A stretch of 24,883 nucleotides of DNA. Origin: a virus. The stretch is from the IMG/VR virus record IMGVR_UViG_3300008050_000019; one strand, written 5' to 3'. The first letter of the stretch is position 1; each line of letters starts with the position of its first letter. The notes under the pieces are model-generated. The model made no database searches, was not told where the DNA came from, and was given only the letters and a program-made list of their open reading frames with translations. Made by a program: the position numbers and the translations under genes. Shown piece after piece: positions 239-24,349 of the stretch.

Positions 239-919
239 TTATTTAACTACCTGTGCTATCATTTCAGCGCGTTGGACGCGCTCTTCAATAACATCCCACC
301 TTAATTCACGCATCATGTTCTCTATATAACCGTTCTTGTTGTCGAGATAGTCTTTGTAATATGAATGTGCCCAAACATCTAATACTACGATCGGAAAGCA
401 CCCTACGGGAATATGTTTACTATCACCATCAATCATAACATTGATGTATCTCCTAAGAAATGTATCATAAACTGTTACTGCCCAACCTTCGTCTGCTGAG
501 GCAGCGCATGCCATAAAGTCCCACTGCCAATCATCGAATGTGCCGAAACTAGCTGCCAGCTTCATGTATGTGATTGAATCGTATGAAATTTCACTTCTAA
601 TGTCACTTATGTTAGAGAAATACATTTCATGCAGCATAACAGAATTTCTATGTCTCATTTCTAGTGCTTTTAACGTTCGAAACTCAGACATGTTATGGTT
701 GGCAGCTTCTCTATCAGCAGTGTCAAGTTCAGCACTAACTTCATTTAAAGCCTGTATCCGCTCTTTATATAACTTAATATGCGTCTGCTTAGTTTTTGCG
801 CTTAGCAACTCTGTATTTAGATCATATGACTTTTCTGACGCGACATACGATTCACTTAAAGGCTTATCAATCTTTAGGTCTTTTTTAATGCCTGCTAATA
901 TATCTTTTCTTGTTACCAT
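239..919 (-). CDS. Fe/Mn superoxide dismutase-like protein
   Basis: C-terminal LDVWAHSYYKDYLDNKNGYIENMMRELRWDV matches the SOD DVWEHAYYLDY..RP.Y...W..V.W motif, including the Asp/His metal ligands. KLAASFGTFDDWQWDFMACAASADEGWAVTV matches SOD AASFGSFADFK..F...A...FGSGW.WLV. ANHNMSEF matches the NH..FW His-ligand region. The N-terminal HH..HH motif is degenerate (single His). Confidence 0.55.
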   Translation of the reverse strand: MVTRKDILAGIKKDLKIDKPLSESYVASEKSYDLNTELLSAKTKQTHIKLYKERIQALNEVSAELDTADREAANHNMSEFRTLKALEMRHRNSVMLHEMYFSNISDIRSEISYDSITYMKLAASFGTFDDWQWDFMACAASADEGWAVTVYDTFLRRYINVMIDGDSKHIPVGCFPIVVLDVWAHSYYKDYLDNKNGYIENMMRELRWDVIEERVQRAEMIAQVVK

Positions 920-1264: not shown

Positions 1265-1846
1265 TTAAAGTTTATAATTCGTACGTTTCTGCCATTCTCT
1301 AAATTCACTTCCCTCTATTGTGCTTGGGATAGTATAAATTCCGTGGATGTTCTCTAGTAATGATTGAGGTAAAATATTTAGTTTCTGTGCGGTCCCCGGT
1401 ATAAAGATAGGCTCTAAATTATCTGGGCCATAAATTCTATCAATAAAAGGGCGAATTGACATCGGTGCACTTTCTCTAATTAACTCGCCCATAGAAAAAC
1501 ATTCATCAACAGATAGTTTTCTATCAGTAGAAACGTACATATGTATATTTCCTGTGGCTGACTTTATCGCAGCATAGCTGCCGCCAGTAATAGGAAATGC
1601 TTCTGATTGCTCCCATAATTTAAAAGCTTTATAATTAGGCGTGTCAATATCAACCCACATTATATTTTTCTTTCCGGCATGTTCTAATAGCTCGCATGCT
1701 GGGACGCCTGTTAAAATGCCTTTTGCTGAACATTCTTGTAGGAATTCGAATTTTTCGTCAAGTGAAGAAAAAGAAATGTTATGTGTTTTTGCTCTTTCTT
1801 TTGAACCATCAGGCAAAAGCTTAGAATATATAAACCCGTATGTCAT
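1265..1846 (-). CDS. Hypothetical protein (193 aa)
   Basis: ORF overlaps the upstream gene's stop by 4 nt (ATGA). No recognisable motif. Confidence 0.5.
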   Translation of the reverse strand: MTYGFIYSKLLPDGSKERAKTHNISFSSLDEKFEFLQECSAKGILTGVPACELLEHAGKKNIMWVDIDTPNYKAFKLWEQSEAFPITGGSYAAIKSATGNIHMYVSTDRKLSVDECFSMGELIRESAPMSIRPFIDRIYGPDNLEPIFIPGTAQKLNILPQSLLENIHGIYTIPSTIEGSEFREWQKRTNYKL

Positions 1847-3633
1847 TTTAATACCTTATCAATCTCTGATGTCCAGCCCTTTCTATCATTTGGCCATGCC
1901 TTCTTTAAATGACGAACAGACGGGATCGCAATCCTGAACTGTTTTGCTTCATCAATGAAATCATCTTCACCTTTCCATTGCTTTCTGTCGCCCATTCTTG
2001 TTGCACTCCAGGGAGTGCTAATGAGGTCTTCGTCACCTGGGTCTACGTTGGATATATAATTGTCATCATCTGGTGGTTGGAAACTATCATCATACTCATC
2101 ATCCTCCACAGGCCGTAATTCCTCAGGAACGTCCTTATATAATTCAGGAAACTCAGCTCGATGCCATGTATGGTCAACATCACTGCTTATTTGTCTTGTT
2201 GCTTCATCCCATCCACCGGTTCCGTGACCTGCTAATTTTTCGAATGCTGCAGATTTCAACTCAAGAGCGTCTGCTGCTGTATCACTCATGCTACCGTAAT
2301 TCATGCCATTTGGGCCGTTGGCGAAGTCTTTTGTAGCATCAGCGAGAATATTCTCTAATTTAGAAATCTCTGCTTTTTTCATCGTAGGGTCAAGCTTAAA
2401 AGCAATTTCTTTTGATTTTTTGAAGCGATCATATAAGGCAGCTTTTGAAGCAGCATATATAAGCTCTCCTGCGATTGTCGACGCAAGTGCTTTAGCACCT
2501 GGGCTTGTTATAGCAACCGAAGCTGGTTTCATTGCTGCCTTTGCTACACCTGCCAATTTTGCTGGATTTGCTGTCGCTGCAGTGCCCATGGCTGCAGCCA
2601 TACTTTTCAAGAAGCTTCTTCTTGTCGTGCCCTTGGCTTCATCAATGAAATCATCTTCACCTTTCCATTGCTTTCTGTCGCCCATTCTTGTCGCACTCCA
2701 GGGTGTGTCTGTGATGTCTTCGTCACCTGGATCTGTGCTGTGATGATTGTCGGTAGCTTTATCAGCTTGTTGATCATTACGCTCAGTTTCTTTTTCAAAA
2801 TCTTCTGGAAATTCTTCTTTGTACCATTCCCGATTTGCGTCATCAGATATTTTTGCCGCCTGATCAGTCCACGCAGGGGTGCCAAAGCCTGATAAATTGT
2901 CGAATAACTCCATATTGGCATCGAAGGCATCCAACACTTCATCACTATGTAATCCCTCAATACCACCTTCAGGAAAACTCTTCATAGTGTCATTTAGAGC
3001 ATTTTCCAGTTTAGCAACCTCTGCTTTTCTCATCTTAGGATCCAATACACCAATGTGCTTTTTCATTTTGGCCCAGCGATTGTACACCTCAGCTTTCGAC
3101 CAAGCATAACCAAGTTCATTTGCTACAAAGAATGAAAGAGCCCTAGCGCCTGGACTTGTTATCGTTGTTGCCGCAGGCGTCATCGCAGTCTTAGCTACAC
3201 CTGCCAATTTTGCTGGATTTGCTGTCGCTGCAGTGCCCATGGCTGCAGCCATGGACTTTAAGAAGCTTCTTCTTGTTGTGCCTTTTGCTTCGGTGATATT
3301 TTGTGTTTTAAACAAATCACTGTATGTTTGGCCCTCAGATAAACCAAATAAATAACGAAGCAATAATTTCGCTTCCACACTTTCAGGAATTATTGCGTGA
3401 CTATAGGGAAAATCAACACCCACTTCAAGTAGCCCATGGGGAGGTAGAAACCTTCTATCATTGATTGATTCTTCAAGTGAATTTTGTGATTTAACTGTCC
3501 AGTGAAGAGGGTGATAAACCAAGACATCGTAAGTGCCCTCTACAATTTTGAAGCCTTTATCTCTAATTCTTTTGTGTGTTTGCTTATCAGCATCTTTACC
3601 TAAAAAGAATGCTATGGGAGAATCATATTGCAT
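1843..3633 (-). CDS. Large internally duplicated protein (596 aa). Each of the two ~220-aa repeat units begins with a twin-arginine (Tat)-like motif TTRRSFLKSMAAAMGTAATANPA and ends with PWSATRMGDRKQWKGEDDFIDEAK.
   Basis: Long ATG-initiated ORF. The two protein repeat units show mosaic nucleotide conservation (see the repeat features). The N-terminal ~135-aa unique domain has no recognisable family. Confidence 0.6.
   Translation of the reverse strand: MQYDSPIAFFLGKDADKQTHKRIRDKGFKIVEGTYDVLVYHPLHWTVKSQNSLEESINDRRFLPPHGLLEVGVDFPYSHAIIPESVEAKLLLRYLFGLSEGQTYSDLFKTQNITEAKGTTRRSFLKSMAAAMGTAATANPAKLAGVAKTAMTPAATTITSPGARALSFFVANELGYAWSKAEVYNRWAKMKKHIGVLDPKMRKAEVAKLENALNDTMKSFPEGGIEGLHSDEVLDAFDANMELFDNLSGFGTPAWTDQAAKISDDANREWYKEEFPEDFEKETERNDQQADKATDNHHSTDPGDEDITDTPWSATRMGDRKQWKGEDDFIDEAKGTTRRSFLKSMAAAMGTAATANPAKLAGVAKAAMKPASVAITSPGAKALASTIAGELIYAASKAALYDRFKKSKEIAFKLDPTMKKAEISKLENILADATKDFANGPNGMNYGSMSDTAADALELKSAAFEKLAGHGTGGWDEATRQISSDVDHTWHRAEFPELYKDVPEELRPVEDDEYDDSFQPPDDDNYISNVDPGDEDLISTPWSATRMGDRKQWKGEDDFIDEAKQFRIAIPSVRHLKKAWPNDRKGWTSEIDKVLK
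1945..2039. repeat. Intragenic direct repeat R1, copy A (~95 nt). Nearly identical to 2636..2730. Encodes PWSATRMGDRKQWKGEDDFIDEAK on the minus strand.
   Basis: Direct nucleotide comparison: gcttcatcaatgaaatcatcttcacctttccattgctttctgtcgcccattcttgt(t/c)gcactccaggg... is shared with only a few substitutions. Confidence 0.8.
2543..2640. repeat. Intragenic direct repeat R2, copy A (~98 nt). Nearly identical to 3194..3290. Encodes the Tat-like segment GTTRRSFLKSMAAAMGTAATANPAKLAGVA.
   Basis: gctacacctgccaattttgctggatttgctgtcgctgcagtgcccatggctgcagccat...gaagcttcttcttgt.gtgcc is shared with about 6 mismatches, synonymous sites included. Confidence 0.8.
2636..2730. repeat. Intragenic direct repeat R1, copy B. 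Abuts R2 copy A.
   Basis: Near-identical to 1945..2039. Confidence 0.8.
3194..3290. repeat. Intragenic direct repeat R2, copy B
   Basis: Near-identical to 2543..2640. Confidence 0.8.
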
Positions 3634-3666
3634 TATCTATTATATATAATCCCCTCTCTTTTTTAT

Positions 3667-3933
3667 TCATTTGTACAATAATAAAGTCTCCTTGATACGA
3701 GACTCCCTCGTCCTCACGTAGGGTAAAGCATTCATTAAAAAAATCCCGGTCAAGGGTAATAATTGTACTGCTGCCACCGTCGAAGGTAACCTCTTTGCAA
3801 CAATTAACACTTCTGTTGCGACGTTTTTAGGCCAATCTATTATAAGATCTCTACGCAAAATCATGTCGCCTTCGCACAATTGCGAAAACTTATTTTTAAA
3901 GAAGTTTTCTTGCGTGATAAAGTATCTATTCAT
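3667..3933 (-). CDS. Hypothetical small protein (88 aa)
   Basis: ATG at 3933 overlaps the dCMP deaminase stop by 8 nt (ATGAATAG), so it looks translationally coupled. It fills an otherwise 290-nt gap. No motif. The region is locally GC-richer. Confidence 0.3.
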   Translation of the reverse strand: MNRYFITQENFFKNKFSQLCEGDMILRRDLIIDWPKNVATEVLIVAKRLPSTVAAVQLLPLTGIFLMNALPYVRTRESRIKETLLLYK

Positions 3934-4321
3934 TTGTTTTAAACTTTCTTACAAAGATACCAGCAGCCTCTAGTCTATCAATACCATCCGTAATTCTGTA
4001 TTCGACATCATAAACAACTTCATCAATCTCTGCATTTATAATTTTCTTTGCACATTGATCACATGGACTGACTGTAAGATACATAATCTTCTCTTTATGA
4101 CTAGAAAAATCGCATTTGATTAGTGCATTCTCCTCAGCGTGTATTGTGCCGCTCTTGCCAGGTTCATCAGATTCGACCATGTTTGTTCCGCCCTTCTGAT
4201 CACCATTGTATCCAACTGCTAAGACTTGTGAATTATCGCCAGTAACGATAACACACCCAACCTTTGTTCTTGGATCAATTGATCTACTTGCCAAAAGACG
4301 AGCTGTCGACATCCAGATCAT
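3926..4321 (-). CDS. dCMP deaminase (zinc-dependent cytidine/deoxycytidylate deaminase family). Start placed at the internal ATG (M73 of the track ORF).
   Basis: HAEENAL and SPCDQCAKKI zinc-binding motifs (H[AC]E...PC..C). N-term RPSWDMIWMSTARLLASRS matches the canonical dCMP deaminase N-terminus. The longer track ORF (to 4537) would overlap the DHH gene by 250 nt, so an internal start at 4321 (or 4312) is preferred. Confidence 0.7.
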   Translation of the reverse strand: MIWMSTARLLASRSIDPRTKVGCVIVTGDNSQVLAVGYNGDQKGGTNMVESDEPGKSGTIHAEENALIKCDFSSHKEKIMYLTVSPCDQCAKKIINAEIDEVVYDVEYRITDGIDRLEAAGIFVRKFKTNE

Positions 4322-5222
4322 ATCCCAACTCGGACGAGCCGGTAAGTTGCTGTGCTCCTGAATCCTTAGTTTCAATTCGGAGGGTTTTAATTTGCTTTTT
4401 AAACAAGTCTTCGATGTTTCCTGAGTATTCAAAGCCTGCGATCTCCGCATGCCCTCCGCCTCCGAATCGCTTAGCGATCGAACCGCAGTCAATATGATCG
4501 TGGAAAGATCGTAAGCTAACTTTCGCATATTTCTCATTATGATCCCAATACCACACTATTGCATAATCGCAATCAGGCGCTAATCTCATGCCGACCTCAG
4601 ATATCCACTGAGTCGAGTTAACAACAAGAACACAATGCTCTTGCAGCTTACGCTTAACTGCCTTTGAGCATACTTTATCAATAGCAGCATCTGCGTAAGG
4701 TAAAATGTGTGAACCCTTTCTAATACAATCATCTACAACAGATGCATTCATCATTCTGTCATACGCTGGAAATTCTAGCGGGATCATATCAAAGGCTGTC
4801 GAGAATTCTTTTGAGTATTCCATATAGGGTTTCCAGCCCATATCTCTGTTTTCTATGAACTGCAGAAACCTTGGCGCAGGTATCCCTCGATGAAAATATT
4901 CCCATGCTAAAATTGCTCCGCTGTTGCCCAACTGAAACCAGTCTGGTTTAGCTATTCCATCTAGCATCATCATTGCTGACTTGTGGTGATCTCTCATTTC
5001 GAAATCTTCGGCAGTCGCAATTAAATGTTTTGTTATTTTTTTGTCATATGCAAAATCAAGAACGACGACACGCTTACCAGTCACGTCAGGTGGCGCTTTT
5101 CCATGAAAGGCTGCATGATATTCAGCCTTATTGCCAAGGACTTTCCATGCTGCCCATGCTGCGCCAAAACCATCAGAACAATTTCCATGATAAATAACGC
5201 AGTTGACAGATTTAGGGTCCAT
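4284..5222 (-). CDS. DHH-DHHA1 family phosphoesterase (NrnA/RecJ-like)
   Basis: Motif I YHGNCSDGFGAAWAAW (H.N.D.D..GA). DHH motif in FEMRDHHKSAM. DHHA1 GGGH motif in RFGGGGHAEIAGF. Confidence 0.65.
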   Translation of the reverse strand: MDPKSVNCVIYHGNCSDGFGAAWAAWKVLGNKAEYHAAFHGKAPPDVTGKRVVVLDFAYDKKITKHLIATAEDFEMRDHHKSAMMMLDGIAKPDWFQLGNSGAILAWEYFHRGIPAPRFLQFIENRDMGWKPYMEYSKEFSTAFDMIPLEFPAYDRMMNASVVDDCIRKGSHILPYADAAIDKVCSKAVKRKLQEHCVLVVNSTQWISEVGMRLAPDCDYAIVWYWDHNEKYAKVSLRSFHDHIDCGSIAKRFGGGGHAEIAGFEYSGNIEDLFKKQIKTLRIETKDSGAQQLTGSSELGYDLDVDSSSFGK

Positions 5223-5223
5223 A

Positions 5224-5805
5224 TTAGCCTACCTTCTTTAACAAGCCATTGACTGCTGTAATGTTACGCTTCCACATTTCATGATTTTTTTGCCAAGGGC
5301 TTGATTTAGTAGCTTTAATATCGGCATCAATCTCGTCCTTATAGTGTATATTCCTTGCATAGAATGCATCTGCAATCTCACGCTCAAGACCAAACTCTTT
5401 TTTAACGAATTGCGCAAAGCACATCATATTCACTCTGCGATAACTATCGCGAGCCTCTTGCCGCCACTTTTCGACTGTGTCAAGATACTCAGCCATTCTA
5501 TCTCTATTATAATGTGTGACAGTAACAGGTAGCTCAGTATCATTACACAATGCATCTTCAATAGACAACGTATGAATTATAACTTTTTCTCCGGCGGTAG
5601 TGATTTCAGCTCCAGTAACGTTGTAACATGCTTTGGAGTCATCTCTTTTTAAACGCTCATATGGGCCGTCATAATAGCCGTACTCATGTTGAACGAAGTA
5701 TATATCTGCCCCATTACAGTTACAATCTAGCTCACCTGATGGGTCTGCTTCTTGAAGTTGCTTATAAGCTCTTTTGTCTTCATCTAAAACCAATTCTTTT
5801 GCCAC
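5224..5805 (-). CDS. Hypothetical protein (193 aa)
   Basis: ORF tightly packed between the DHH gene and the endolysin. Cys pair CNCNG near the N-terminus. No family recognised. Confidence 0.5.
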   Translation of the reverse strand: MAKELVLDEDKRAYKQLQEADPSGELDCNCNGADIYFVQHEYGYYDGPYERLKRDDSKACYNVTGAEITTAGEKVIIHTLSIEDALCNDTELPVTVTHYNRDRMAEYLDTVEKWRQEARDSYRRVNMMCFAQFVKKEFGLEREIADAFYARNIHYKDEIDADIKATKSSPWQKNHEMWKRNITAVNGLLKKVG

Positions 5806-6632
5806 TTGACACCATTACGTTTCCATAACGGATATGATTTTAATTTTTTCAATTTATATGATTTTATCAATTCTGAGCCGAAAGTTACACCCTTTTTTAA
5901 GACATCTTCATTTTGGAAATGCCACCACTCTGCTGCCAGCGTATTTCCTTTCGAGAAAAATGACTTTCTTGCGCGGATACTCTTCCAGCCATTTTCTGCC
6001 ATAAGCTCAGTGATGTTAATATAATTTCCTGCAACGGAGATTTTTTTGTGTTCATAGGTGTACGCCTCCAGCTCTAAATATGTGCCTATAGGGTAATCAA
6101 CCCTAGCGTATACAGTCCACCTCCGGTGATCCTCGAGACTCTGGACAACAACATAAGGATCATTGTAAGGATCAACCATACCTGATTTTGTATGAAGATC
6201 ATGAGCAAGACCAAGATAATGAAGGCTCGTTTTACTTCTATTTTTGCCTACTGATGCACTTAGAAGTCTCCTTCCGCCATGAGATGTAAATAGCGCGCCT
6301 GCGCTCTGGATCGTGTCTCTTACTTTTGCTAATGAAGAAACTGCATCTTCCCTTATCCAGGTTTGATTTGCTCCAGATACTATTCCGCCAAGAACAAAAT
6401 CGTCGCATACAATTTTTTTGAACTTTAGCTTCTTCGAACTGGCCGGAGATTTACGTAATGCTCTAATAGTTAATGAACCAACAATACCATCAGCAACAAG
6501 CTTGTGCTTTCTTTGAAAGGCTCGAACTGCTGACTTTGTCGTAGGCCCCATTTGGTCGTCTAAGCGTAGCCGGTGGCCATGCTTATTCAACAATAATTGA
6601 ATCTCTCTTGTCTTCATTTTTCTACCAACCAT
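5784..6632 (-). CDS. Endolysin: N-terminal peptidoglycan-binding domain plus C-terminal M15 (VanY-like) zinc peptidase
   Basis: PG_binding_1-like LQ..LN..G..L..DG..G..T..AVRAFQ....L..DGIVG..T. M15 zinc-ligand motifs SLHYLGLAHDL (S.H..G.A.D) and AAEWWHFQ (EWWHF). Confidence 0.7.
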   Translation of the reverse strand: MVGRKMKTREIQLLLNKHGHRLRLDDQMGPTTKSAVRAFQRKHKLVADGIVGSLTIRALRKSPASSKKLKFKKIVCDDFVLGGIVSGANQTWIREDAVSSLAKVRDTIQSAGALFTSHGGRRLLSASVGKNRSKTSLHYLGLAHDLHTKSGMVDPYNDPYVVVQSLEDHRRWTVYARVDYPIGTYLELEAYTYEHKKISVAGNYINITELMAENGWKSIRARKSFFSKGNTLAAEWWHFQNEDVLKKGVTFGSELIKSYKLKKLKSYPLWKRNGVKWQKNWF

Positions 6633-15623: not shown

Positions 15624-17246
15624 TTATCTCATTTTGTCTTTTACTTTTTTGAGTACTGTGGCCCTGTCTTGCCTGTACTTCTCCTTGTTTTTTAATGTTT
15701 TGCTAGCTCTTAATTCAAGCTGTGATCGTGGAAATTCTGTTGTCCACCGTTTTAGGATGTCATCTGGAGTATCTCTTTTGCCAGCCAGCGTCATTTGAAT
15801 CATGGAGTCTTTACTAGCGTCTGCTTTATCAGCTAAAACACGTATAACATCAGGTGTTAAACTTAGATTATATACTACGCTCATTCTCACTTCCCTAGAA
15901 TGATCACCTGCTAAAGCGAGAAGTATAGATTCAGATGCTAAATTATTTGCTGCTACTTTTCTTCTAACAAGCTCTGATGAATCACTTGCTAAAGTGTTAA
16001 GTATCTCTAAAGAGACTTTCTGATTACTTGCAGTCGTGGCTCTAACTATTTCATCTTCAGCCGTCGAAAGGCTTTCCAGCACGTCAATAGGCGTGTTGAT
16101 ATTTATTGCGAGATGATCTTTTACATAAGTGTTATCAGATGATAACGCACGAAGAGTAGATTGCCCCGTCCGATGATTAAGCGCGACCATGGCTCGGACG
16201 TCGTCCGAATCATCATTTTTAAGCATATCGAGTACCTCAGGAGAAGCATTCCAGCTATCTGCTACGGCCCGTCTAACTTCTTCGTCTGTAGAACTAGCAG
16301 CTTTAACAAGACGCTCATGTGAAGATACTTTAACGTAATCGGTGACTTCTGGCGAAAACTTATACTCTTTCTTGCCCTCTAATGTATCAAGCAGATCAAA
16401 AAATGCATCATATCGAAGCCCGCTGGTAAACTTTTTGAACCTTGGAACAGACGTAATCGCTTTCTTAACGTCTCTTAAAGCAGGATGCTCATGATTCTTT
16501 TTTGTATGATTTTTAATCGCAGTACTAATCTCATCCCAATCGTCACCAAAAGCATCATAAAATTTAAACTTCTTATTGTTATGATCAACTGTTGTTTCAT
16601 TCGGCGCGGATGGTTGAATAACTCCGCCCTTAACGCCAATTGACCACTTCTTCTTCGTATTGTGTTTATCAATTACATAGAAAAGAATTGTATTGTTTAA
16701 AATGTAACTATAAAATAGATTCTCGCCCTTTGTTCTTGCAGTACACCAAACCGTACCACGTCCAATAGAGCATGATGCGTCAACACTTCTTGGCATAAAT
16801 ACAACAAAGTCCTCGGATTCATAAATGTTATCCGCGTCCTTGGCTGCAGCATCATGATCTATCTTAGAGTCTCCAGGAAGCTCTTCAAGCTTCCGGTGGA
16901 GATCGCCAGGTGTCTTATAATTGTTAATATCAGCGTCTTTACCTTTAAGTTTCTGCTTGTTTTTAGCCTTATCAAATGAAATAATGAGAGGTGAAATGTC
17001 TCTGAGAGGTTCATTATTTGAACGTGAAACACGTTCAAGCCACATAAGATATTGCTTTAATTTAGCTTGAGGAAGAACTTGAAGTTTTCCGAAGACTTCA
17101 TCCCATTCTTCTGGAGCCCTGTTAGACTTTTCTTTGATATCATCAATGGTACCCTCACTAAGAAGCTTAATTGCATATTCTAAAAGTTTGTTTTCGCTAG
17201 AGGCACCAGAGATCATCTCTCTAAGTTCAGAAATTTTGACAAGCAT
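15624..17246 (-). CDS. Leucine-rich-repeat-variant (LRV)/HEAT-like repeat protein (540 aa). Its N-terminal ~85-aa domain is duplicated at 24361..24690.
   Basis: C-terminal ~23-aa repeats of the form D...VR..VA.N......L..LA.D. N-terminus MLVKISELRE...EEWDEVFGKLQVLPQAKLKQYLMWLERVSRSNNEPLRD is ~70% identical to the upstream fragment. Confidence 0.6.
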   Translation of the reverse strand: MLVKISELREMISGASSENKLLEYAIKLLSEGTIDDIKEKSNRAPEEWDEVFGKLQVLPQAKLKQYLMWLERVSRSNNEPLRDISPLIISFDKAKNKQKLKGKDADINNYKTPGDLHRKLEELPGDSKIDHDAAAKDADNIYESEDFVVFMPRSVDASCSIGRGTVWCTARTKGENLFYSYILNNTILFYVIDKHNTKKKWSIGVKGGVIQPSAPNETTVDHNNKKFKFYDAFGDDWDEISTAIKNHTKKNHEHPALRDVKKAITSVPRFKKFTSGLRYDAFFDLLDTLEGKKEYKFSPEVTDYVKVSSHERLVKAASSTDEEVRRAVADSWNASPEVLDMLKNDDSDDVRAMVALNHRTGQSTLRALSSDNTYVKDHLAININTPIDVLESLSTAEDEIVRATTASNQKVSLEILNTLASDSSELVRRKVAANNLASESILLALAGDHSREVRMSVVYNLSLTPDVIRVLADKADASKDSMIQMTLAGKRDTPDDILKRWTTEFPRSQLELRASKTLKNKEKYRQDRATVLKKVKDKMR

Positions 17247-17273: not shown

Positions 17274-18329
17274 TTATGACAGTTCTGTCATTGACTTAAT
17301 TTTCCAAATTGTCGTAGCAAAACCAAAATCACTTTTATCAATTTCACCCATGTATGCCGTATTAAGCTCTGGCATCGGATGCTTATCAGGATGCCATCCC
17401 CAGCAATAACATCTGTGTTTTTTGCCAGTTGGTCCCATGATATTAAGCAACAAATAAGGCTTCTTCGTCTTTGTTACTTTTTTAATAGCTTCATCTAAAA
17501 TAAACCAGTGCAGCCCTTTCTTCTTATAGTCATCGATAGTAGGAACGCCGATTTTATCTAACCTTGTTCTGACTTTATCTGAAATTATTAGACTGAGATC
17601 GGTTGACCCAACAAGCTCCTTCAGTTGTCTAATCCATGTAGGCTTATCCCACTCAACAACACCTTGAGACTCTTGTAGGCGACGTTCAAAAACATCACGC
17701 CCTTTCTTTACAGATTTAAGCTTGTGAAGCTGTAAATCAGAATCTTCATAGTCATTGCCCGTCAACACATCAAACATCTGATGATAGTTAGAAAATGTCT
17801 TTCCTTCGCCCACAATACCTGTCGAGTCAAATGCACCTATCTGGATCAGATGTTGCATGGCGCGTTTGTTAAATTTTGAATGTTTCCAGCTTCCGTCTTC
17901 ATTCCATAACAAATCATGAACAGAGTTATAGGGCCTGTTTTCTATAATTTCGTCAACAGCCGCTTCACCCACTGCCTTCACAGTCAAAAATGACGGCATG
18001 AACTTTTTGCCAGGCATTATAGTCCATTTTTTTGTTGCGTGGTTAATATCGACCTTCGTTATTTCATAGCCGAATGCACGTAGTTCACCAATTGCCTTCG
18101 ATCGCTTATCAGGATGGCTAGATTGAGTCTCCATATATGCACATAGCCACTCTGATTCAAAGTGCGTAAGAAGCCAGGCGCACATATACGAATCGATTGC
18201 GTAAGATACAGCATGTGAATTAGACGTTAACAATCCATTGGCAAGATAGAATTGATGATCTGGGTGGTCAACTTCAAGATCATATGCTTGATGTTTTCCG
18301 ATGGATTTAAATGATTTAATTTTAGGCAT
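17274..18329 (-). CDS. dnaE: DnaE-type (Pol III alpha) polymerase C-terminal fragment, preceded by a split-intein C-half (intein-C, 37 aa)
   Basis: N-term MPKIKSFKSIGKHQAYDLEVDHPDHQFYLANGLLTSN matches the Ssp DnaE-c [36 protein letters not shown] (blocks F/G; terminal Asn; +1 Ser). The following SHAVSYAIDSYMCAWL..GYEITKVDIN...VKAVGEAAVDEIIENR...IQIGAFD matches DnaE KSHAAAYALVSYQTAWLK...ILPPDIN...AIKGVGEGPIEAI...SGAFD. Confidence 0.8.
   Translation of the reverse strand: MPKIKSFKSIGKHQAYDLEVDHPDHQFYLANGLLTSNSHAVSYAIDSYMCAWLLTHFESEWLCAYMETQSSHPDKRSKAIGELRAFGYEITKVDINHATKKWTIMPGKKFMPSFLTVKAVGEAAVDEIIENRPYNSVHDLLWNEDGSWKHSKFNKRAMQHLIQIGAFDSTGIVGEGKTFSNYHQMFDVLTGNDYEDSDLQLHKLKSVKKGRDVFERRLQESQGVVEWDKPTWIRQLKELVGSTDLSLIISDKVRTRLDKIGVPTIDDYKKKGLHWFILDEAIKKVTKTKKPYLLLNIMGPTGKKHRCYCWGWHPDKHPMPELNTAYMGEIDKSDFGFATTIWKIKSMTELS
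18219..18329 (-). mobile_element. Split intein, C-terminal half (intein-C) of the DnaE intein
   Basis: See the parent CDS: block F DLEVDHPDHQFYLANG, terminal ..TSN, +1 Ser. Confidence 0.75.
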
Positions 18330-20285: not shown

Positions 20286-20639
20286 TCATGTATATGTTTC
20301 ATATAAACCTTCTTCCCATGAATTTACTAAGCATAAAATTCTATAGGTTTTTTTTGATATTCTATGGCCGTTGATATAATATACCTTACTTGCAGGTAAC
20401 ACATTACCGCTAAGATCAAAAGTAAGTGAAGCGGGGCCACATTCGTTATGAAGGCCGCCGTGCCTATAAAATTTTTCTTGATGAACAGCCCCGGTAGTAT
20501 AATAACTGACTTGGGCAGGACCTGTAGTACGATGTATGATTGCATCAAGCCAATACTCTTTGGTGCAAACTTTGTTAAAGTTTCTGGAGTGGGGATGCCA
20601 GTAATTTATTGTTAATGTGCGTGTAAATGTGTTTAGCAT
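20286..20639 (-). CDS. MORN-like repeat protein, family member 4
   Basis: IHRTTGPAQVSYYTTG / HNECGPASLTFDLSGN. C-terminal YRILCLVNSWEEGLYETY. Confidence 0.6.
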   Translation of the reverse strand: MLNTFTRTLTINYWHPHSRNFNKVCTKEYWLDAIIHRTTGPAQVSYYTTGAVHQEKFYRHGGLHNECGPASLTFDLSGNVLPASKVYYINGHRISKKTYRILCLVNSWEEGLYETYT

Positions 20640-20851
20640 GGCACATCACAAATAAGAATATCGGAATTAATCGTACTCGAAGAAACAATGTACTTATCAA
20701 TTTTATTTTGTGTAACACTCCAAACTACAACATCTCCAAGTGAATGTGGGTCCCTGAGATCATTGTTGGATAAGAAGCTCAGAGGAATGTAGTATTCTTT
20801 GAGGAACGTTTCGTAAATAAGCTGGCCAATTTTAAATTCTGATACTAACAT
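20633..20851 (-). CDS. Small paralog family protein 1 of 6 (MLxSEFKIGQLIYD...YYIPL N-terminus)
   Basis: MLVSEFKIGQLIYETFLKEYYIPLSF. Confidence 0.55.
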   Translation of the reverse strand: MLVSEFKIGQLIYETFLKEYYIPLSFLSNNDLRDPHSLGDVVVWSVTQNKIDKYIVSSSTINSDILICDVPC

Positions 20852-20872
20852 AATGCCTCACAAATGATAACA

Positions 20873-21061
20873 TCATTCCTTACAGATAGATTGTTGATTT
20901 CGTATATCAGTTGCCTGAGCGTTTACGACCCAAACTGTCACAGTGTATGACTCTATGAAGTGGGTCATAAGCAGTGATGGCTTAAAAGTCAGAGGAATGT
21001 AGTAGGAATCATCGGGTTTGTCATAAATAAGCTGTCCAACTTTAAGTTCTGATGTTAACAT
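20873..21061 (-). CDS. Small paralog family protein 2 of 6
   Basis: MLTSELKVGQLIYDKPDDSYYIPLTF. Confidence 0.55.
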   Translation of the reverse strand: MLTSELKVGQLIYDKPDDSYYIPLTFKPSLLMTHFIESYTVTVWVVNAQATDIRNQQSICKE

Positions 21062-21267
21062 AATGTCTCACAAACTACATAATCTCTTTCAACAACGTGG
21101 TCCGCTATATTATAGTGTTCAGTGCGGAACCTTGTGATATTAAATACCACCACCTCAAAAACAGGTCCGTGGGGCAGGCTGATTGGTTTGATCTCCACTG
21201 GAACGTAATAAAACTTGCCGATTGAATCATAAATGAGCTGCCCGATCTTGAATTCTGATGCTAGCAT
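21055..21267 (-). CDS. Small paralog family protein 3 of 6 (start at the ATG; the track begins at an upstream TTG)
   Basis: MLASEFKIGQLIYDSIGKFYYVPVEI. Confidence 0.55.
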   Translation of the reverse strand: MLASEFKIGQLIYDSIGKFYYVPVEIKPISLPHGPVFEVVVFNITRFRTEHYNIADHVVERDYVVCETLC

Positions 21268-21482
21268 GTTGCACCGCAAATCACTTGATCATCTTCGACA
21301 GCAACTGGCGTTATATAATAACTTTCAATACTAAGATTTGTAACATTTAATACTGTCGCGCTAAAAGATTCTATGTAGTGTGTAACACACTCAGCCCTGT
21401 CGCCAATAAATAACGGAATATAATAGCATTCATTATACCCGTCATAAATAAGCTGCCCGATCTTGAATTCTGCTACTAGCAT
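21261..21482 (-). CDS. Small paralog family protein 4 of 6
   Basis: MLVAEFKIGQLIYDGYNECYYIPLFI. Confidence 0.55.
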   Translation of the reverse strand: MLVAEFKIGQLIYDGYNECYYIPLFIGDRAECVTHYIESFSATVLNVTNLSIESYYITPVAVEDDQVICGATC

Positions 21483-21709
21483 TAGGATGCCACTCTTAGT
21501 TCTGCTATGACAGTGTCATGTTTTAGCGTTACGTTAGTCATCGTGTAGGTTTGTGCGCCATTTTCCAAAGTTTTTATGGGACTCCGAAATACCCATACAC
21601 TCGCAACAAAAAAGCCCATATCATCGTAATAAGTCTCCAGCGGAATGTAGAAACATTTAAGAGCCCTATCGTAGATAAGCTGTCCAATGTTAAGTTCAGA
21701 TGTTAACAT
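21482..21709 (-). CDS. Small paralog family protein 5 of 6
   Basis: MLTSELNIGQLIYDRALKCFYIPLET. Shares the C-terminal DTVIAEL with member 6. Confidence 0.55.
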   Translation of the reverse strand: MLTSELNIGQLIYDRALKCFYIPLETYYDDMGFFVASVWVFRSPIKTLENGAQTYTMTNVTLKHDTVIAELRVAS

Positions 21710-21921
21710 TATATTACTACTAACTCCGCTATGACAGTGTCATTTCTTAATGATAGGTTAGTTATATTAAATATTACCGCCCTATTATCTGCAATTCTCC
21801 ATGCTGTTACAACATAGGCTGTCTCAGAGGAGTTAGTAGTATCAACTGATATAGGAATATAACAAAACTTGTGGACGCGATCATAGATAAGCTGATGGAC
21901 TTTGAATTCAGATAGCAGCAT
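21709..21921 (-). CDS. Small paralog family protein 6 of 6 (start at the ATG; the track begins at an upstream TTG)
   Basis: MLLSEFKVHQLIYDRVHKFCYIPISV...NDTVIAELVVI. Confidence 0.55.
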   Translation of the reverse strand: MLLSEFKVHQLIYDRVHKFCYIPISVDTTNSSETAYVVTAWRIADNRAVIFNITNLSLRNDTVIAELVVI

Positions 21922-21995
21922 ATTATTAAATGGCCTATTCAATTATAGGACATCTAATTTCATTTTAGCACGCTGTATAAAAATAATATAACTTA

Positions 21996-22252: not shown

Positions 22253-22498
22253 TTAAGCATGGTTAACCTCGGTTTGCTCTATGTGATCAATAACATCATT
22301 AACGTGAACAAATTTTTTATCAAACTTTTCATGTGAATAATATTCCCCGTGATGCATATTAGCTGGATTCCACGCCCATCCGGCACGCTTAATCTTACGC
22401 TTTTTCATTTGAAGTGAATAGGCTGGCAAATTGCCTATGACGGTGACAACTCCTGTAATAGCAGCTATTGCACTTAATATTATACCTAATTCAACCAT
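22253..22498 (-). CDS. Small membrane protein (81 aa, N-terminal TM segment)
   Basis: MVELGIILSAIAAITGVVTVIGNLPAY. ATG start overlaps the upstream gene's end. Confidence 0.5.
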   Translation of the reverse strand: MVELGIILSAIAAITGVVTVIGNLPAYSLQMKKRKIKRAGWAWNPANMHHGEYYSHEKFDKKFVHVNDVIDHIEQTEVNHA

Positions 22499-23513
22499 TA
22501 TACATTTTCCCTATCCTTGTAACCCCAGGTTGTGGGTTTTTTAAACTTTCAAAGAGCTGTTCAAGACATTCTTTTTTAAATTCTTTTTTATTCCACTGAT
22601 CATACGAAATTCTAATTAACGTCCAGTTATGTTTCTCTATATGTTCATCGAGTAATTTATCCTTAAGCTGGATTTCGTCTAAATCTTGCGACTCAAATTT
22701 CTTTTGAAAATGTAAATCTCCATCAAATTCAAGATACACTCGAAGCTTGATATCACCGATGTCAACTTGTCTAAATTTAGACTTTGTAGGGAAAGTAACA
22801 CTTTTGACTCGCTGGCTGCGCTTAAAGCTATAACCCTCAATGCTGCTTACAATTTCGAATAAAGCAGTTTCTGGACGCGAAGTCCACCCGTTTATATATT
22901 TAACAACACACTTTTCATAAAACTCTTCCCAATTTTCTTCCCGCCACTTACGAAGCTGTTCTGTTCTTCTCTTTAAAATTTCTGGACGAGCAGATGTAAT
23001 CTTTGCTGTTTCCGATGATTTTTTTCTAAACTTCTCTGTTTTATTTAATGTGCCAAGAAGATCACTTCTACGCTGGCGTTCTTTATCATTTGACATAATA
23101 GAAGCAGAGACAGCTTTGCCCATTTTTTGTTTGTATTCTGACAAATCTGTACCAGCGTCATTTGCGCGCTGAATCCAGTCGCCATTCTTTTTATTTTGCT
23201 TGCTATAAGCATCAAATGAGCTGCTACATTTAACTGGCCCATGCTTTTCTATATACTCTGGTGCTGTCAAACCATGCTCCACCCTAATGTGGCGTGTTAG
23301 ACTCTTACATCTCCAACCGCATAATGCGCACATGACATATCCGACATTTAAAACAAGCTCTGAGTAGCATTCTACTTCATGAGCTTCTACAAGATCTGGA
23401 GTTCTTCCCCCCTTCCCACATTTCCCGCAACGATTTCTAGGTCGTTTTCTATTATTTTGTGCATTGGAAGCATTCTCCCGTCCATTACCCTGAATTTGTG
23501 ATCCATCGTGCAT
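22491..23513 (-). CDS. Candidate free-standing homing endonuclease: N-terminal Cys/His zinc-binding region plus C-terminal DUF559/Vsr-like (PD-(D/E)xK) nuclease domain
   Basis: CGKCGK...HEVEC...CALCGWRC zinc-finger-like N-terminus. C-terminal VDIGDIKLRVYLEFDGDLHFQ...DKLLDEHIEKHNWTLIRISYDQW resembles the DUF559/Vsr core (D...E.DG..H...D...L...GW.VIR). Its start overlaps the last 127 nt of the intein-N ORF. Confidence 0.5.
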   Translation of the reverse strand: MHDGSQIQGNGRENASNAQNNRKRPRNRCGKCGKGGRTPDLVEAHEVECYSELVLNVGYVMCALCGWRCKSLTRHIRVEHGLTAPEYIEKHGPVKCSSSFDAYSKQNKKNGDWIQRANDAGTDLSEYKQKMGKAVSASIMSNDKERQRRSDLLGTLNKTEKFRKKSSETAKITSARPEILKRRTEQLRKWREENWEEFYEKCVVKYINGWTSRPETALFEIVSSIEGYSFKRSQRVKSVTFPTKSKFRQVDIGDIKLRVYLEFDGDLHFQKKFESQDLDEIQLKDKLLDEHIEKHNWTLIRISYDQWNKKEFKKECLEQLFESLKNPQPGVTRIGKMYNG

Positions 23514-24349
23514 CTTACCTTTTGCCCTTCCTCTAGCTCGAACTCATATAGCTCGAGCATGCCGTGATCATGTCTTTGTAGTACTTCCACAAAGATGTCA
23601 CTCTTATTTCGCTCATCACGCGATTTAATATAGTCACCCGGCTTAATATCGCCGACGGTCGTCGTTTTAATGAGTTCTCCCTCATTTGTATATGTATTTA
23701 TACACTCAGAATGTAACAGAGTTTTATTAAAGCCGTACCCAGAAAATGCTGCAACTCTATCGAACAGACTCTCTGCGTCTGCTTTGCGAATTCCTCTTTC
23801 AACTGCGCCCTCGATAAATTGCTTTTCAAGTTTCTTAGCTTCTTCTTTCGCCTTTGACTTTCCAGACATTGACCTTTTTGTGATAACTTTTCTTAGCTTA
23901 TCACAATCGTCAAGATTCAGTCCACCTACAACATGACCAAGCTTCATTAGCTGTTCTTGGAAGATTACGTGACCGAATGTTTCTTCAAGAACCTCTTTAA
24001 CTAAAGGGTGCTCATACTCAACAGACGCTGGATCATTCTTTGCAGTAATGTATGTCTTATCAACCTTTCCTGTCAATGGGCCCGGGCGATAAATCGATGT
24101 TGCCGTTGCAATCTCAACGATATTCTTCGGTTCTAGATTAGAGAAAAACATCTGGGCGCCTTTGGCTGTGCATTGAAAAACACCACCCCAGTTACCTTCT
24201 TTGTAGATTTTATCGTAAACTGTTTTGTCTTGAAGATCTAAAACGTCAGGATGAAGATTGCTTTCGTACCAATTTTTAATGTCATTAAAAGCTGGATCAT
24301 TGATGGGCTCAGCTTTTTTGAGTATAGTTTTCTTTCTTAATTTAACCAC
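23387..24349 (-). CDS. dnaE: DnaE-type (Pol III alpha) polymerase internal fragment (fingers region) fused to a split-intein N-half. The fragment begins at GTG immediately after an in-frame TAA.
   Basis: GGVFQ...IYRPGPL...FGHVIFQEQLMKLG...FSGYGFNK matches DnaE AVFQLES...LFRPGPL...YGIILYQEQVMQIA...FAGYGFNKSH. After ...TLLHSE the sequence CINTYTNEGELIKTTTVGDIKPGDYI...RCTMDHKFRVMDGRML matches the Ssp DnaE-n intein blocks A/B, then a stop. Confidence 0.8.
   Translation of the reverse strand: MVKLRKKTILKKAEPINDPAFNDIKNWYESNLHPDVLDLQDKTVYDKIYKEGNWGGVFQCTAKGAQMFFSNLEPKNIVEIATATSIYRPGPLTGKVDKTYITAKNDPASVEYEHPLVKEVLEETFGHVIFQEQLMKLGHVVGGLNLDDCDKLRKVITKRSMSGKSKAKEEAKKLEKQFIEGAVERGIRKADAESLFDRVAAFSGYGFNKTLLHSECINTYTNEGELIKTTTVGDIKPGDYIKSRDERNKSDIFVEVLQRHDHGMLELYEFELEEGQKVRCTMDHKFRVMDGRMLPMHKIIENDLEIVAGNVGRGEELQIL
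23390..23704 (-). mobile_element. Split intein, N-terminal half (intein-N, 105 aa) of the DnaE intein
   Basis: Begins with Cys (CINTYT). Block B TMDHKF. Length and sequence parallel cyanobacterial DnaE-n split inteins. Terminates with a stop codon rather than continuing into an endonuclease domain. Confidence 0.75.

Follow-up and report, generated by a model that had tools for sequence, protein, structure and literature searches.

Twin-arginine translocation (Tat) signals combine an SRRxFLK motif, at least 12 uncharged or hydrophobic residues, a helix-breaker near the end of that stretch and an AxA site that is often followed by a basic residue, and a Tat signal is N-terminal by definition (PMC7317946). 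In dual Sec/Tat membrane proteins, a Tat signal can function from an internal position, the motif being recognized once the upstream portions of the chain have been handled (PMC3471235, PMC5449189). In our search of the literature, internal signals were encountered only in dual Sec/Tat proteins, and no precedent was found for phage proteins with internal or tandem Tat signals. Here we analysed a gene in a 24,883-nucleotide (nt) stretch of viral DNA (IMG/VR record IMGVR_UViG_3300008050_000019), the whole of which is referred to below as the window. The gene encodes a protein of 596 amino acids (aa), P0001, in which a Tat-signal-like peptide occurs twice, both times internally, at the head of each of two tandem modules. 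Our best explanation of the whole, to which we assign a probability of roughly 0.45, combines the anatomy and evolutionary history of the gene, of which we are quite confident, with some involvement of the host Tat system, which we put forward tentatively.

As the original prediction had proposed, P0001 consists of an N-terminal domain (N-domain; 117 aa), two units of approximately 220 aa (U1 and U2; 217 and 230 aa) and a C-terminal tail of 32 aa (Table 1). Both units open with GTTRRSFLKSMAAAMGTAATANPAKLAGVAK and close with TPWSATRMGDRKQWKGEDDFIDEAK, the amino acids being identical in the two copies, and a repeat finder returned the same segment pairs at the unit ends. TTRRSFLK occupies residues 119–126 and 336–343, with the motif itself starting at residues 120 and 337, and the residue preceding T-R-R is Thr in both units (ACA in U1 and ACG in U2), in agreement with the earlier statement that the motif is internal and has no Met. 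Over their whole lengths, U1 and U2 share 59% amino-acid identity, compared with 23–29% between either unit and the module of any other member of the family described below, which gives good support to the proposal that the duplication happened within the lineage of this phage.

Identity between the two units is patchy. The segment 1945–2039 pairs with 2635–2729, not with 2636–2730 as originally given, at 87 of 95 nt, and 2543–2640 pairs with 3194–3291 at 90 of 98 nt; the near-identity of the end segments was confirmed, at 92% in both pairs rather than the approximately 95% claimed. Perfect tracts of 59 and 56 nt lie within these patches, and a 44-mer from a patch occurred twice in the window and in none of 100 shuffles. 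The middle has indeed drifted, to 44% amino-acid identity (71 of 161 aligned codons) and not the approximately 50% claimed. By the Nei-Gojobori method, synonymous divergence (dS) and nonsynonymous divergence (dN) were 0.25 and 0.03 in the 5′ patch, 0.40 and 0 in the 3′ patch, and approximately 2.0 (saturated) and 0.55 in the middle, where the dN/dS ratio of approximately 0.3 indicates that the region is not junk.

We propose that the ends of both copies are held by two forces, strong selection on linear motifs of the family and short gene-conversion tracts (59 and 56 nt). With respect to the first, none of the 56 aligned patch codons shows an amino-acid change between the copies, when approximately 33 replacement changes would be expected under neutrality given the nine silent ones. 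The codons of RRSFLKS differ at six positions between the copies while the peptide is unchanged, and the L-K-S codons beside the 59-nt tract (TTAAAGTCC versus TTGAAAAGT) have five differences in 9 nt, all silent. The Arg codons of the RR motif also differ between relatives (AGA, AGG and CGT), indicating that selection acts on the protein, and both unit ends are motifs conserved family-wide (RRxF[LM]K and W-x-G-E). With respect to the second, codons for the same residue differ at 9 of 51 positions in the patches versus 30 of 67 in the middle (Fisher P = 0.003). At saturation with the phage's own codon usage, 23.9 of the 56 patch codons would be expected to be identical, whereas 47 are (P = 1e-11); on the same basis, perfect runs of 19 and 18 codons have P = 8e-9 and 1e-6. 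Because codon identity is far above the codon-usage expectation, the nucleotide identity of the patches goes beyond protein constraint alone, and short conversion tracts would be the simplest account of the excess. Gene conversion had been proposed for the patchy identity from the outset, and a role for it fits these codon identities and the patch dS of 0.25–0.40 versus approximately 2 in the middle; the main driver, selection at the protein level, had been missed.

The origin of the two modules can be proposed with good support. We infer that an ancestral single module was flanked by two 9-nt GAAGCAAAA repeats (E-A-K) and that unequal exchange or slippage between them produced two modules, which would account exactly for the joint GAAGCCAAG. 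The two copies would later have diverged to synonymous saturation in the middle, which is still under moderate purifying selection. Whatever its function, the gene would illustrate, cleanly and in a natural setting, how a 9-nt microhomology can lead to a tandem duplication within a gene, and it would also exemplify 56–59-nt gene-conversion tracts in a phage genome and separate selection on linear motifs and on the intervening domain.

An exhaustive phmmer search of 1.84 billion representative proteins returned only P0002–P0006 as relatives of P0001, and a profile search added P0008 and P0009. Five of these, P0002, P0003, P0004, P0008 and P0009, are full-length (349–400 aa), and P0005 and P0006 are N-terminal fragments; P0007 (3,095 aa and repetitive, with a phmmer E of 3e-5 to the acidic stretch 501–543) was dismissed as low-complexity. 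Judged from these searches, the family is very small and undescribed, with six full-length members including P0001, and all relatives come from uncultured phage-like contigs. Searches with tblastn of 50,697 phage records found no relatives of P0001, P0009 or P0010, the product of the adjacent partner gene; scans of IMG/VR with the protein, the family alignment and a degenerate DNA pattern gave nothing; a scan of JGI metagenomes recovered only the contig already known; and GTDB genomes yielded nothing. Length variants in related phages, which the original prediction had suggested looking for, were absent from the phage, IMG/VR, JGI, GTDB and protein-collection searches: each of the five full-length relatives has one module, and P0001 has two. 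A single unit with an N-terminal Met-RR signal in related genomes had been named at first as a refutation; the single unit was found, but in all of the relatives the motif is internal, behind the N-domain.

The family has a common order. An N-domain (46–55% identical) is followed by [ST]-R-R-x-F-[LM]-[KS], at residue 123–130 in the relatives, and an A/G/K-rich stretch, then by a region of helices and an acidic one containing G-x-D-[DE]-[IL], by P-W-M-G-E, and by a basic tail of approximately 30 aa with the consensus IAIPSxxHLxKAWPxxxxWxxEIDKIL; across the family, the module-end motif takes the form P-W-(x)-M-G-[DE]. The core [ST]RRxF[LM] is present in all seven family instances, at residues 120–130 or 337, and since it is internal in the single-module relatives too, we regard the internal twin-arginine motif as a defining feature of the family and not an accident of duplication. 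It is preceded by Met (ATG) in four of the five relatives, by Phe in one and by Thr in P0001. In AlphaFold models, both patches have a predicted local distance difference test score (pLDDT) of 25–40 and are probably disordered, the module cores are helical, and the N-domain, with the invariant residues D14, D36, H44, S78, H79 and S85, is predicted to form a soluble alpha/beta fold; the full-length model was poor (pLDDT 49), and a Foldseek search of PDB with it was meaningless. The modules of P0001 are helical and acidic, and no Pfam domain was found in them. When the whole protein and the sets of N-domains and of partner proteins were compared with Pfam, PHROGs, NCBIfam and PADLOC, only Tat-signal models were matched, beyond isolated weak matches, and no significant match of the N-domain, module or tail was found in these databases or among PDB sequences and folds. 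Weak matches to NodB-like 7bly (E = 0.047) and TubZ (E = 0.015) were not accepted, and we did not accept VVEGxYD and FFLGSDAD as Toprim-like, since their order is reversed and neither hidden Markov models (HMMs) nor folds gave support.

In both copies of the P0001 peptide, TTRRSFLK is followed by 15 uncharged, A/G/T-rich residues with a Pro near their end, then by A-T-A and Lys; every textbook Tat element is present except position. The TatP expression RR.[FGAVML][LITMVF] fits all seven family instances, although on its own this expression gives 15% false positives on cytoplasmic RR proteins (PMC1182353). Five of the six members match both PF10518 and TIGR01409 at E <= 1, with P0002 passing TIGR01409 at 18.7 bits, and a survey of 60 kb of six-frame open reading frames (ORFs) from this phage and its relatives turned up no further Tat-like signals. 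Matches to NCBIfam 'TatB_1' (E 4e-4 to 0.02) add nothing because they cover the RR motif itself, and the idea that the stretch after the motif resembles the TatA/TatB hinge was discarded for want of a Pfam match. Agreement at six of seven consensus positions, the A/G-rich follower and matches to two signal HMMs in five of six members would be unlikely for an unrelated motif, and for this reason we rank a Tat-related function first.

We propose that the [ST]RRxF[LM]K peptide, predicted to be disordered and lying behind a folded soluble domain, may be a TatBC-directed targeting or docking peptide that is recognized internally. The N-domain would stay in the cytoplasm, and the host Tat translocase would either anchor the downstream module or modules or let them pass. 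Because the twin arginines do not leave TatC's cytoplasmic face during transport (PMC7317946), an upstream cytoplasmic domain would be topologically acceptable, and the low pLDDT of both patches is typical of linear docking motifs. The duplication would have given two independently selected copies of the Tat-like peptide, which suggests that each acts alone, as alternative entry points or in bivalent binding. If the peptide engages Tat, a twin-arginine signal would be readable inside a soluble protein, phages would target or exploit the Tat translocase, and P0001 would be a natural two-signal substrate for probing the multivalent TatBC receptor. A more specific version, which we consider doubtful, is that the tandem peptides of this jumbo-phage protein are internal mimics of Tat signals that engage host TatBC from the cytoplasmic side, perhaps plugging or commandeering the translocase, or else holding a phage domain that is cytoplasmic, along with its partner, at the membrane as the helical module is threaded into the periplasm, with bivalent binding made possible by the duplication. 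If this were true, P0001 would be the first phage factor directed at the Tat pathway, and its peptide would be the first Tat signal to be recognized downstream of a soluble folded domain.

Several observations weigh against this explanation. P0001 scores 21.1 bits with PF10518, below the gathering cutoff (GA) of 22.7, and 16.1 bits with TIGR01409, below the cutoff of 16.7. The motif is internal in every member (120 and 337 in P0001 and 123–130 in the relatives), behind 117–130 residues, and what lies upstream is predicted to be a folded soluble domain without a membrane helix. No stretch reaches membrane-helix hydrophobicity, the maximum 19-residue Kyte-Doolittle mean being 1.14 in P0001 and at most 1.49 in the relatives. 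The uncharged run after the motif is 15 residues in P0001 and 11 in P0002, and is reduced to 0–6 before a Lys in P0003, P0004, P0008 and P0009; because Lys interrupts it in four of the five relatives, a canonical hydrophobic region (h-region) is not a family feature. The gene context of nucleotide metabolism and replication suggests a cytoplasmic role. If the first signal drove the export of everything downstream, the second would be a mere passenger, yet it is selected equally strongly. As for the history, replacement of one core by recombination with an unsampled relative is an alternative that would mimic gene conversion.

The alternative that survives best, a real though lesser possibility, is that RRxFLK is unrelated to Tat and that P0001 is a cytoplasmic scaffold or adaptor of a phage replication and nucleotide-metabolism module. 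Its disordered motifs (RRxF[LM]K, the acidic G-x-D-[DE]-[IL], P-W-M-G-E and the basic tail) would dock proteins, for example the co-translated 193-aa partner P0010, and the duplication would merely double the valency or length of the scaffold. A translationally coupled partner kept in four of five related loci is consistent with this: its homologue (189–194 aa) directly follows the homologous gene in loci L002 (5354–5938), L004 (5089–5658) and L006 (10001–10582), follows a 70-aa ORF in L005 (1541–2125), and is absent from L003. The setting is cytoplasmic as well. The neighbours of the P0001 gene encode an Fe/Mn superoxide dismutase (SOD)-like protein, deoxycytidine monophosphate (dCMP) deaminase, a DHH/DHHA1 protein, thymidylate synthase, a kinase-like protein and two epimerases, and further neighbours encode a NUDIX protein, a primase and a split DNA polymerase III (Pol III) alpha with an HNH gene. 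In L006 two Pol III alpha fragments flank the gene pair, which is encoded on the opposite strand, and in L003 and L004 the pair adjoins the intein-bearing finger fragment. The internal position of the motif in every member, the predicted disorder of the patches, the h-region broken by Lys in most relatives and the lack of a membrane-grade segment in any member would also fit a scaffold. However, six of seven Tat consensus positions in every member, the A/G-rich follower and two Tat HMMs in five of six members, one match being above cutoff, would then be a striking coincidence, and neither a binding partner nor a known cytoplasmic motif of RRxFLK form has been identified. If the motif were such a coincidental docking peptide, P0001 would be an ordinary orphan protein with an internal duplication.

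The partner itself has no family assignment. Its homologues share invariant W-x-D-I-D, N-x-H-x-[YF]-V and I-D-R-[IV]-Y-G motifs, which resemble the catalytic motifs of primase-polymerases; we treat this as a lead only, the sole match (Prim-Pol, E = 0.11, in one of five members) not being accepted. Together, P0001 and the partner of approximately 190 aa define a new two-gene module in large uncultured phages.

Processing or cleavage sites had been among the candidate explanations offered at first. We consider it improbable that P0001 is a polyprotein whose three junctions are cut after E-A-K, whether by the N-domain itself, by a different phage protease or by one of the host. Cleavage of this kind would free the N-domain, the tail peptide and two exported modules with a truly N-terminal Tat signal (GTTRRSFLK...). 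Such processing would explain the equal selection on both ends of both copies and the lack of need for a Met. I-[TD]-E-A-K precedes both GTTRR and QFRIAIPS in P0001, E-A-K is found at all three junctions of P0001 and both of P0009, and K, R or Q stands at the corresponding junction positions of the other relatives; I/L-x-E is the site type of the T4 prohead protease, and the invariant N-domain residues include Asp, His and Ser. On the other hand, E-A-K is not family-wide, the other four relatives having EKKG, EASG, NRQ and NKK upstream and ENR, ESR, DKR and KFD downstream. In addition, no protease was evident in the approximately 35 kb read of the 308-kb contig, and the N-domain has no protease-like structural match.

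It is very unlikely that the patches are kept for a function at the nucleic-acid level, such as a folded RNA, a promoter or start inside the gene, or cassettes through which modules would be shuffled by recombination. Their synonymous sites are more alike than codon usage predicts, a perfect 16-nt palindrome is found in each copy, and ATG precedes the motif in most relatives. However, the fold at the U1/U2 junction is no more stable than those of shuffles (z = -0.54), no Rfam family was matched, and promoter-like sites are not enriched (10 versus 7.3 ± 2.9 expected); promoter and terminator scans and a tRNA search gave nothing relevant. These results run counter to the strong nucleotide-level constraint suggested at first, as do the differing RRSFLKS codons, the retention of the peptide with other codons in the relatives and the lack of length variants. 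Internal initiation, a further suggestion, is excluded in the P0001 gene because the codon before T-R-R is ACA or ACG, though it might occur in the four relatives with ATG there. The 16-nt palindrome, CCATGGCTGCAGCCAT(GG), lies at 2586–2601 and 3239–3254 and encodes MAAAMG; a further sequence present in each unit, AAGAAGCTTCTT, lies at 2609–2626 and 3260–3277 and stems from RRSFL codons. Both are probably by-products of codon choice, and the relatives do not share them.

The window is the last 24.9 kb of a 308,593-bp ENA contig from an uncultured phage. The identical 1,791-nt gene is also present on a JGI contig of 61.7 kb that comes from a different dataset, and the two contigs agree at each of the 12,582 bases compared. 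The downstream genes occur on four more contigs, which derive from JGI, ENA and Logan; every one of these opens within the perfect 56-nt tract, the one from Logan exactly 30 nt short of the tract's end, which is the expected behaviour of an assembly graph at a true repeat. Although four contigs end at the repeated patch, an assembly artefact, which the original prediction had raised, has next to no chance of explaining the tandem repeat: it would give identical copies, whereas these have 59% protein identity, are saturated at synonymous sites in the middle and so are too diverged for a duplication error; the reading frame is unbroken through both; the second assembly is identical over 12.6 kb; and the tracts of 56–59 nt are shorter than k = 141 (contig name k141_306648), which leaves the path unambiguous if 141 was the final k-mer size.

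Table 1. Features of the P0001 gene and its partner in the window
Feature	Position	Strand	Remarks
Complete ORF, P0001, 596 aa plus stop	1843..3633	minus	4-nt overlap (ATGA) with the partner-gene start
N-terminal alpha/beta domain, aa 1-117	3283..3633	minus	Motifs FFLGxDAD, GYxVVEGxYDxxVYHxxHW, GLLExG and PYSHxIxPKS kept in the family
Module (unit) 1, U1, aa 118-334, 217 aa	2632..3282	minus	
Module (unit) 2, U2, aa 335-564, 230 aa	1942..2631	minus	
Conserved basic C-terminal tail, aa 565-596, 32 aa, QFRIAIPSVRHLKKAWPNDRKGWTSEIDKVLK	1846..1941	minus	48-57% identical to the tail of each of the five relatives
Tat-signal-like peptide 1, aa 119-142	3208..3279	minus	PF10518 matched over aa 120-138; 15 uncharged residues in a row
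Tat-signal-like peptide 2, aa 336-359	2557..2628	minus	Same amino acids as peptide 1; TIGR01409 match at aa 336-359
59-nt perfect tract, U1 copy	3194..3252	minus	Encodes MAAAMGTAATANPAKLAGV; holds palindrome CCATGGCTGCAGCCAT; putative gene-conversion tract
59-nt perfect tract, U2 copy	2543..2601	minus	
56-nt perfect tract, U1 copy	2636..2691	minus	Encodes TRMGDRKQWKGEDDFIDE; putative gene-conversion tract
56-nt perfect tract, U2 copy	1946..2001	minus	Four independent contigs start within it
GAAGCAAAA (E-A-K)	3283..3291	minus	N-domain/U1 junction
GAAGCCAAG (E-A-K)	2632..2640	minus	U1/U2 junction, the duplication joint
GAAGCAAAA (E-A-K)	1942..1950	minus	U2/tail junction
Conserved partner gene, P0010, 193 aa	1265..1846	minus	Invariant W-x-D-I-D, N-x-H and D136

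Other features of the window and the related loci were also recorded. The homologous genes in L002–L006 have no Shine-Dalgarno-like sequence in the 30 nt upstream; they have in common an A/T-rich sequence of the CATA(T/C)TTAAC...CAT type that ends a few bases before the start, and at 3634–3666 of the window TATATATAAT ends 7 nt before the ATG of the P0001 gene. This A/T-rich sequence may be a promoter for a leaderless or short-leader transcript, or the host may not use Shine-Dalgarno sequences. The Pol III alpha gene is split between 17274–18329 and 22491–24349, the parts being separated by the HNH-endonuclease gene and approximately 4 kb of small ORFs. It is also split in the relatives (L003, 267–947; L004, 2604–3926; L006, 5771–12760), where the finger fragment carries intein-splicing domains. 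Six paralogous small ORFs of 62–77 aa lie in tandem on the minus strand at 20633–21942 and start with ML(V/T/A/L)SEFK(I/V)GQLIYD...YYIP, and more than 20 consecutive ORFs of 59–89 aa follow the homologous gene in L003.

The SOD-like gene (239–919, minus strand) encodes a 226-aa protein in which only the C-terminal domain of Fe/Mn superoxide dismutase was detected (E = 9e-17), with the N-terminal domain undetected. The longest dCMP-deaminase ORF (203 aa, 3926–4537) overlaps the DHH/DHHA1 gene (4284–5222, minus strand) by approximately 250 nt, and the later start in the public gene call (131 aa) is probably the true one. A peptidoglycan-binding-domain protein is encoded at 5784–6632, and a 540-aa LRV/HEAT-repeat protein at 15624–17246 (minus strand), between the primase and a Pol III alpha fragment. 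Beyond the low-coordinate end of the window, the same contig (L001, 14333–15503) carries hydrophobic, membrane-protein-like ORFs of 112 and 131 aa followed by an ORF of 147 aa whose N-terminus is signal-peptide-like and whose C-terminus is hydrophobic, a three-ORF cluster that resembles a lysis cassette.

Among known systems, substrates of T4-type prohead proteases recall P0001 in the I-T-E and I-D-E found at all three of its junctions; unlike in those systems, the P0001 sites are not kept in relatives, and the gene lies among early or replication genes, not head genes. Multi-cassette precursors of the cyanobactin PatE type have conserved flanks around fast-evolving cores of 6–8 residues, with dedicated proteases encoded nearby. 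They share with P0001 the arrangement of near-identical nucleotide flanks around diverged cores in one ORF, whereas the P0001 cores are approximately 160–175 residues long, a scale 20-fold larger, and are helical and acidic and under purifying selection (dN/dS approximately 0.3). In the bipartite chloroplast transit peptides of thylakoid Tat substrates, an internal Tat signal is made N-terminal by proteolysis, the same logic as in a P0001 polyprotein. The upstream parts of thylakoid substrates are short and unstructured and are removed by a known peptidase, in contrast to the conserved folded domain of P0001, for which no protease was identified.

Canonical Tat signals, such as those of TorA and SufI (PF10518 and TIGR01409), resemble the P0001 peptide in S/T-R-R-x-F-L-K, the 15 uncharged A/G/T-rich residues, the Pro, A-x-A and the Lys, and the HMM matches are at or near cutoff. 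Unlike them, the P0001 peptide is internal behind a 117-aa soluble domain, lacks a Met and occurs twice per chain, and the h-region is interrupted by Lys in most relatives. Because the N-terminal position defines the class and the peptide is internal in both copies, we do not place P0001 in the Tat-signal class; at most it would act in the manner of such a signal. In dual Sec/Tat membrane proteins such as the actinobacterial Rieske protein (PMC3471235, PMC5449189), the upstream part is made up of membrane helices that are inserted by Sec, and a cofactor is bound by the exported domain, whereas P0001 has a soluble domain without membrane helices upstream, no Cys in the whole protein and few His (four in U1 and three in U2), and no cofactor-binding domain was found in it. 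What these proteins have in common with P0001 is a twin-arginine motif, a working one in their case, far from the N-terminus.

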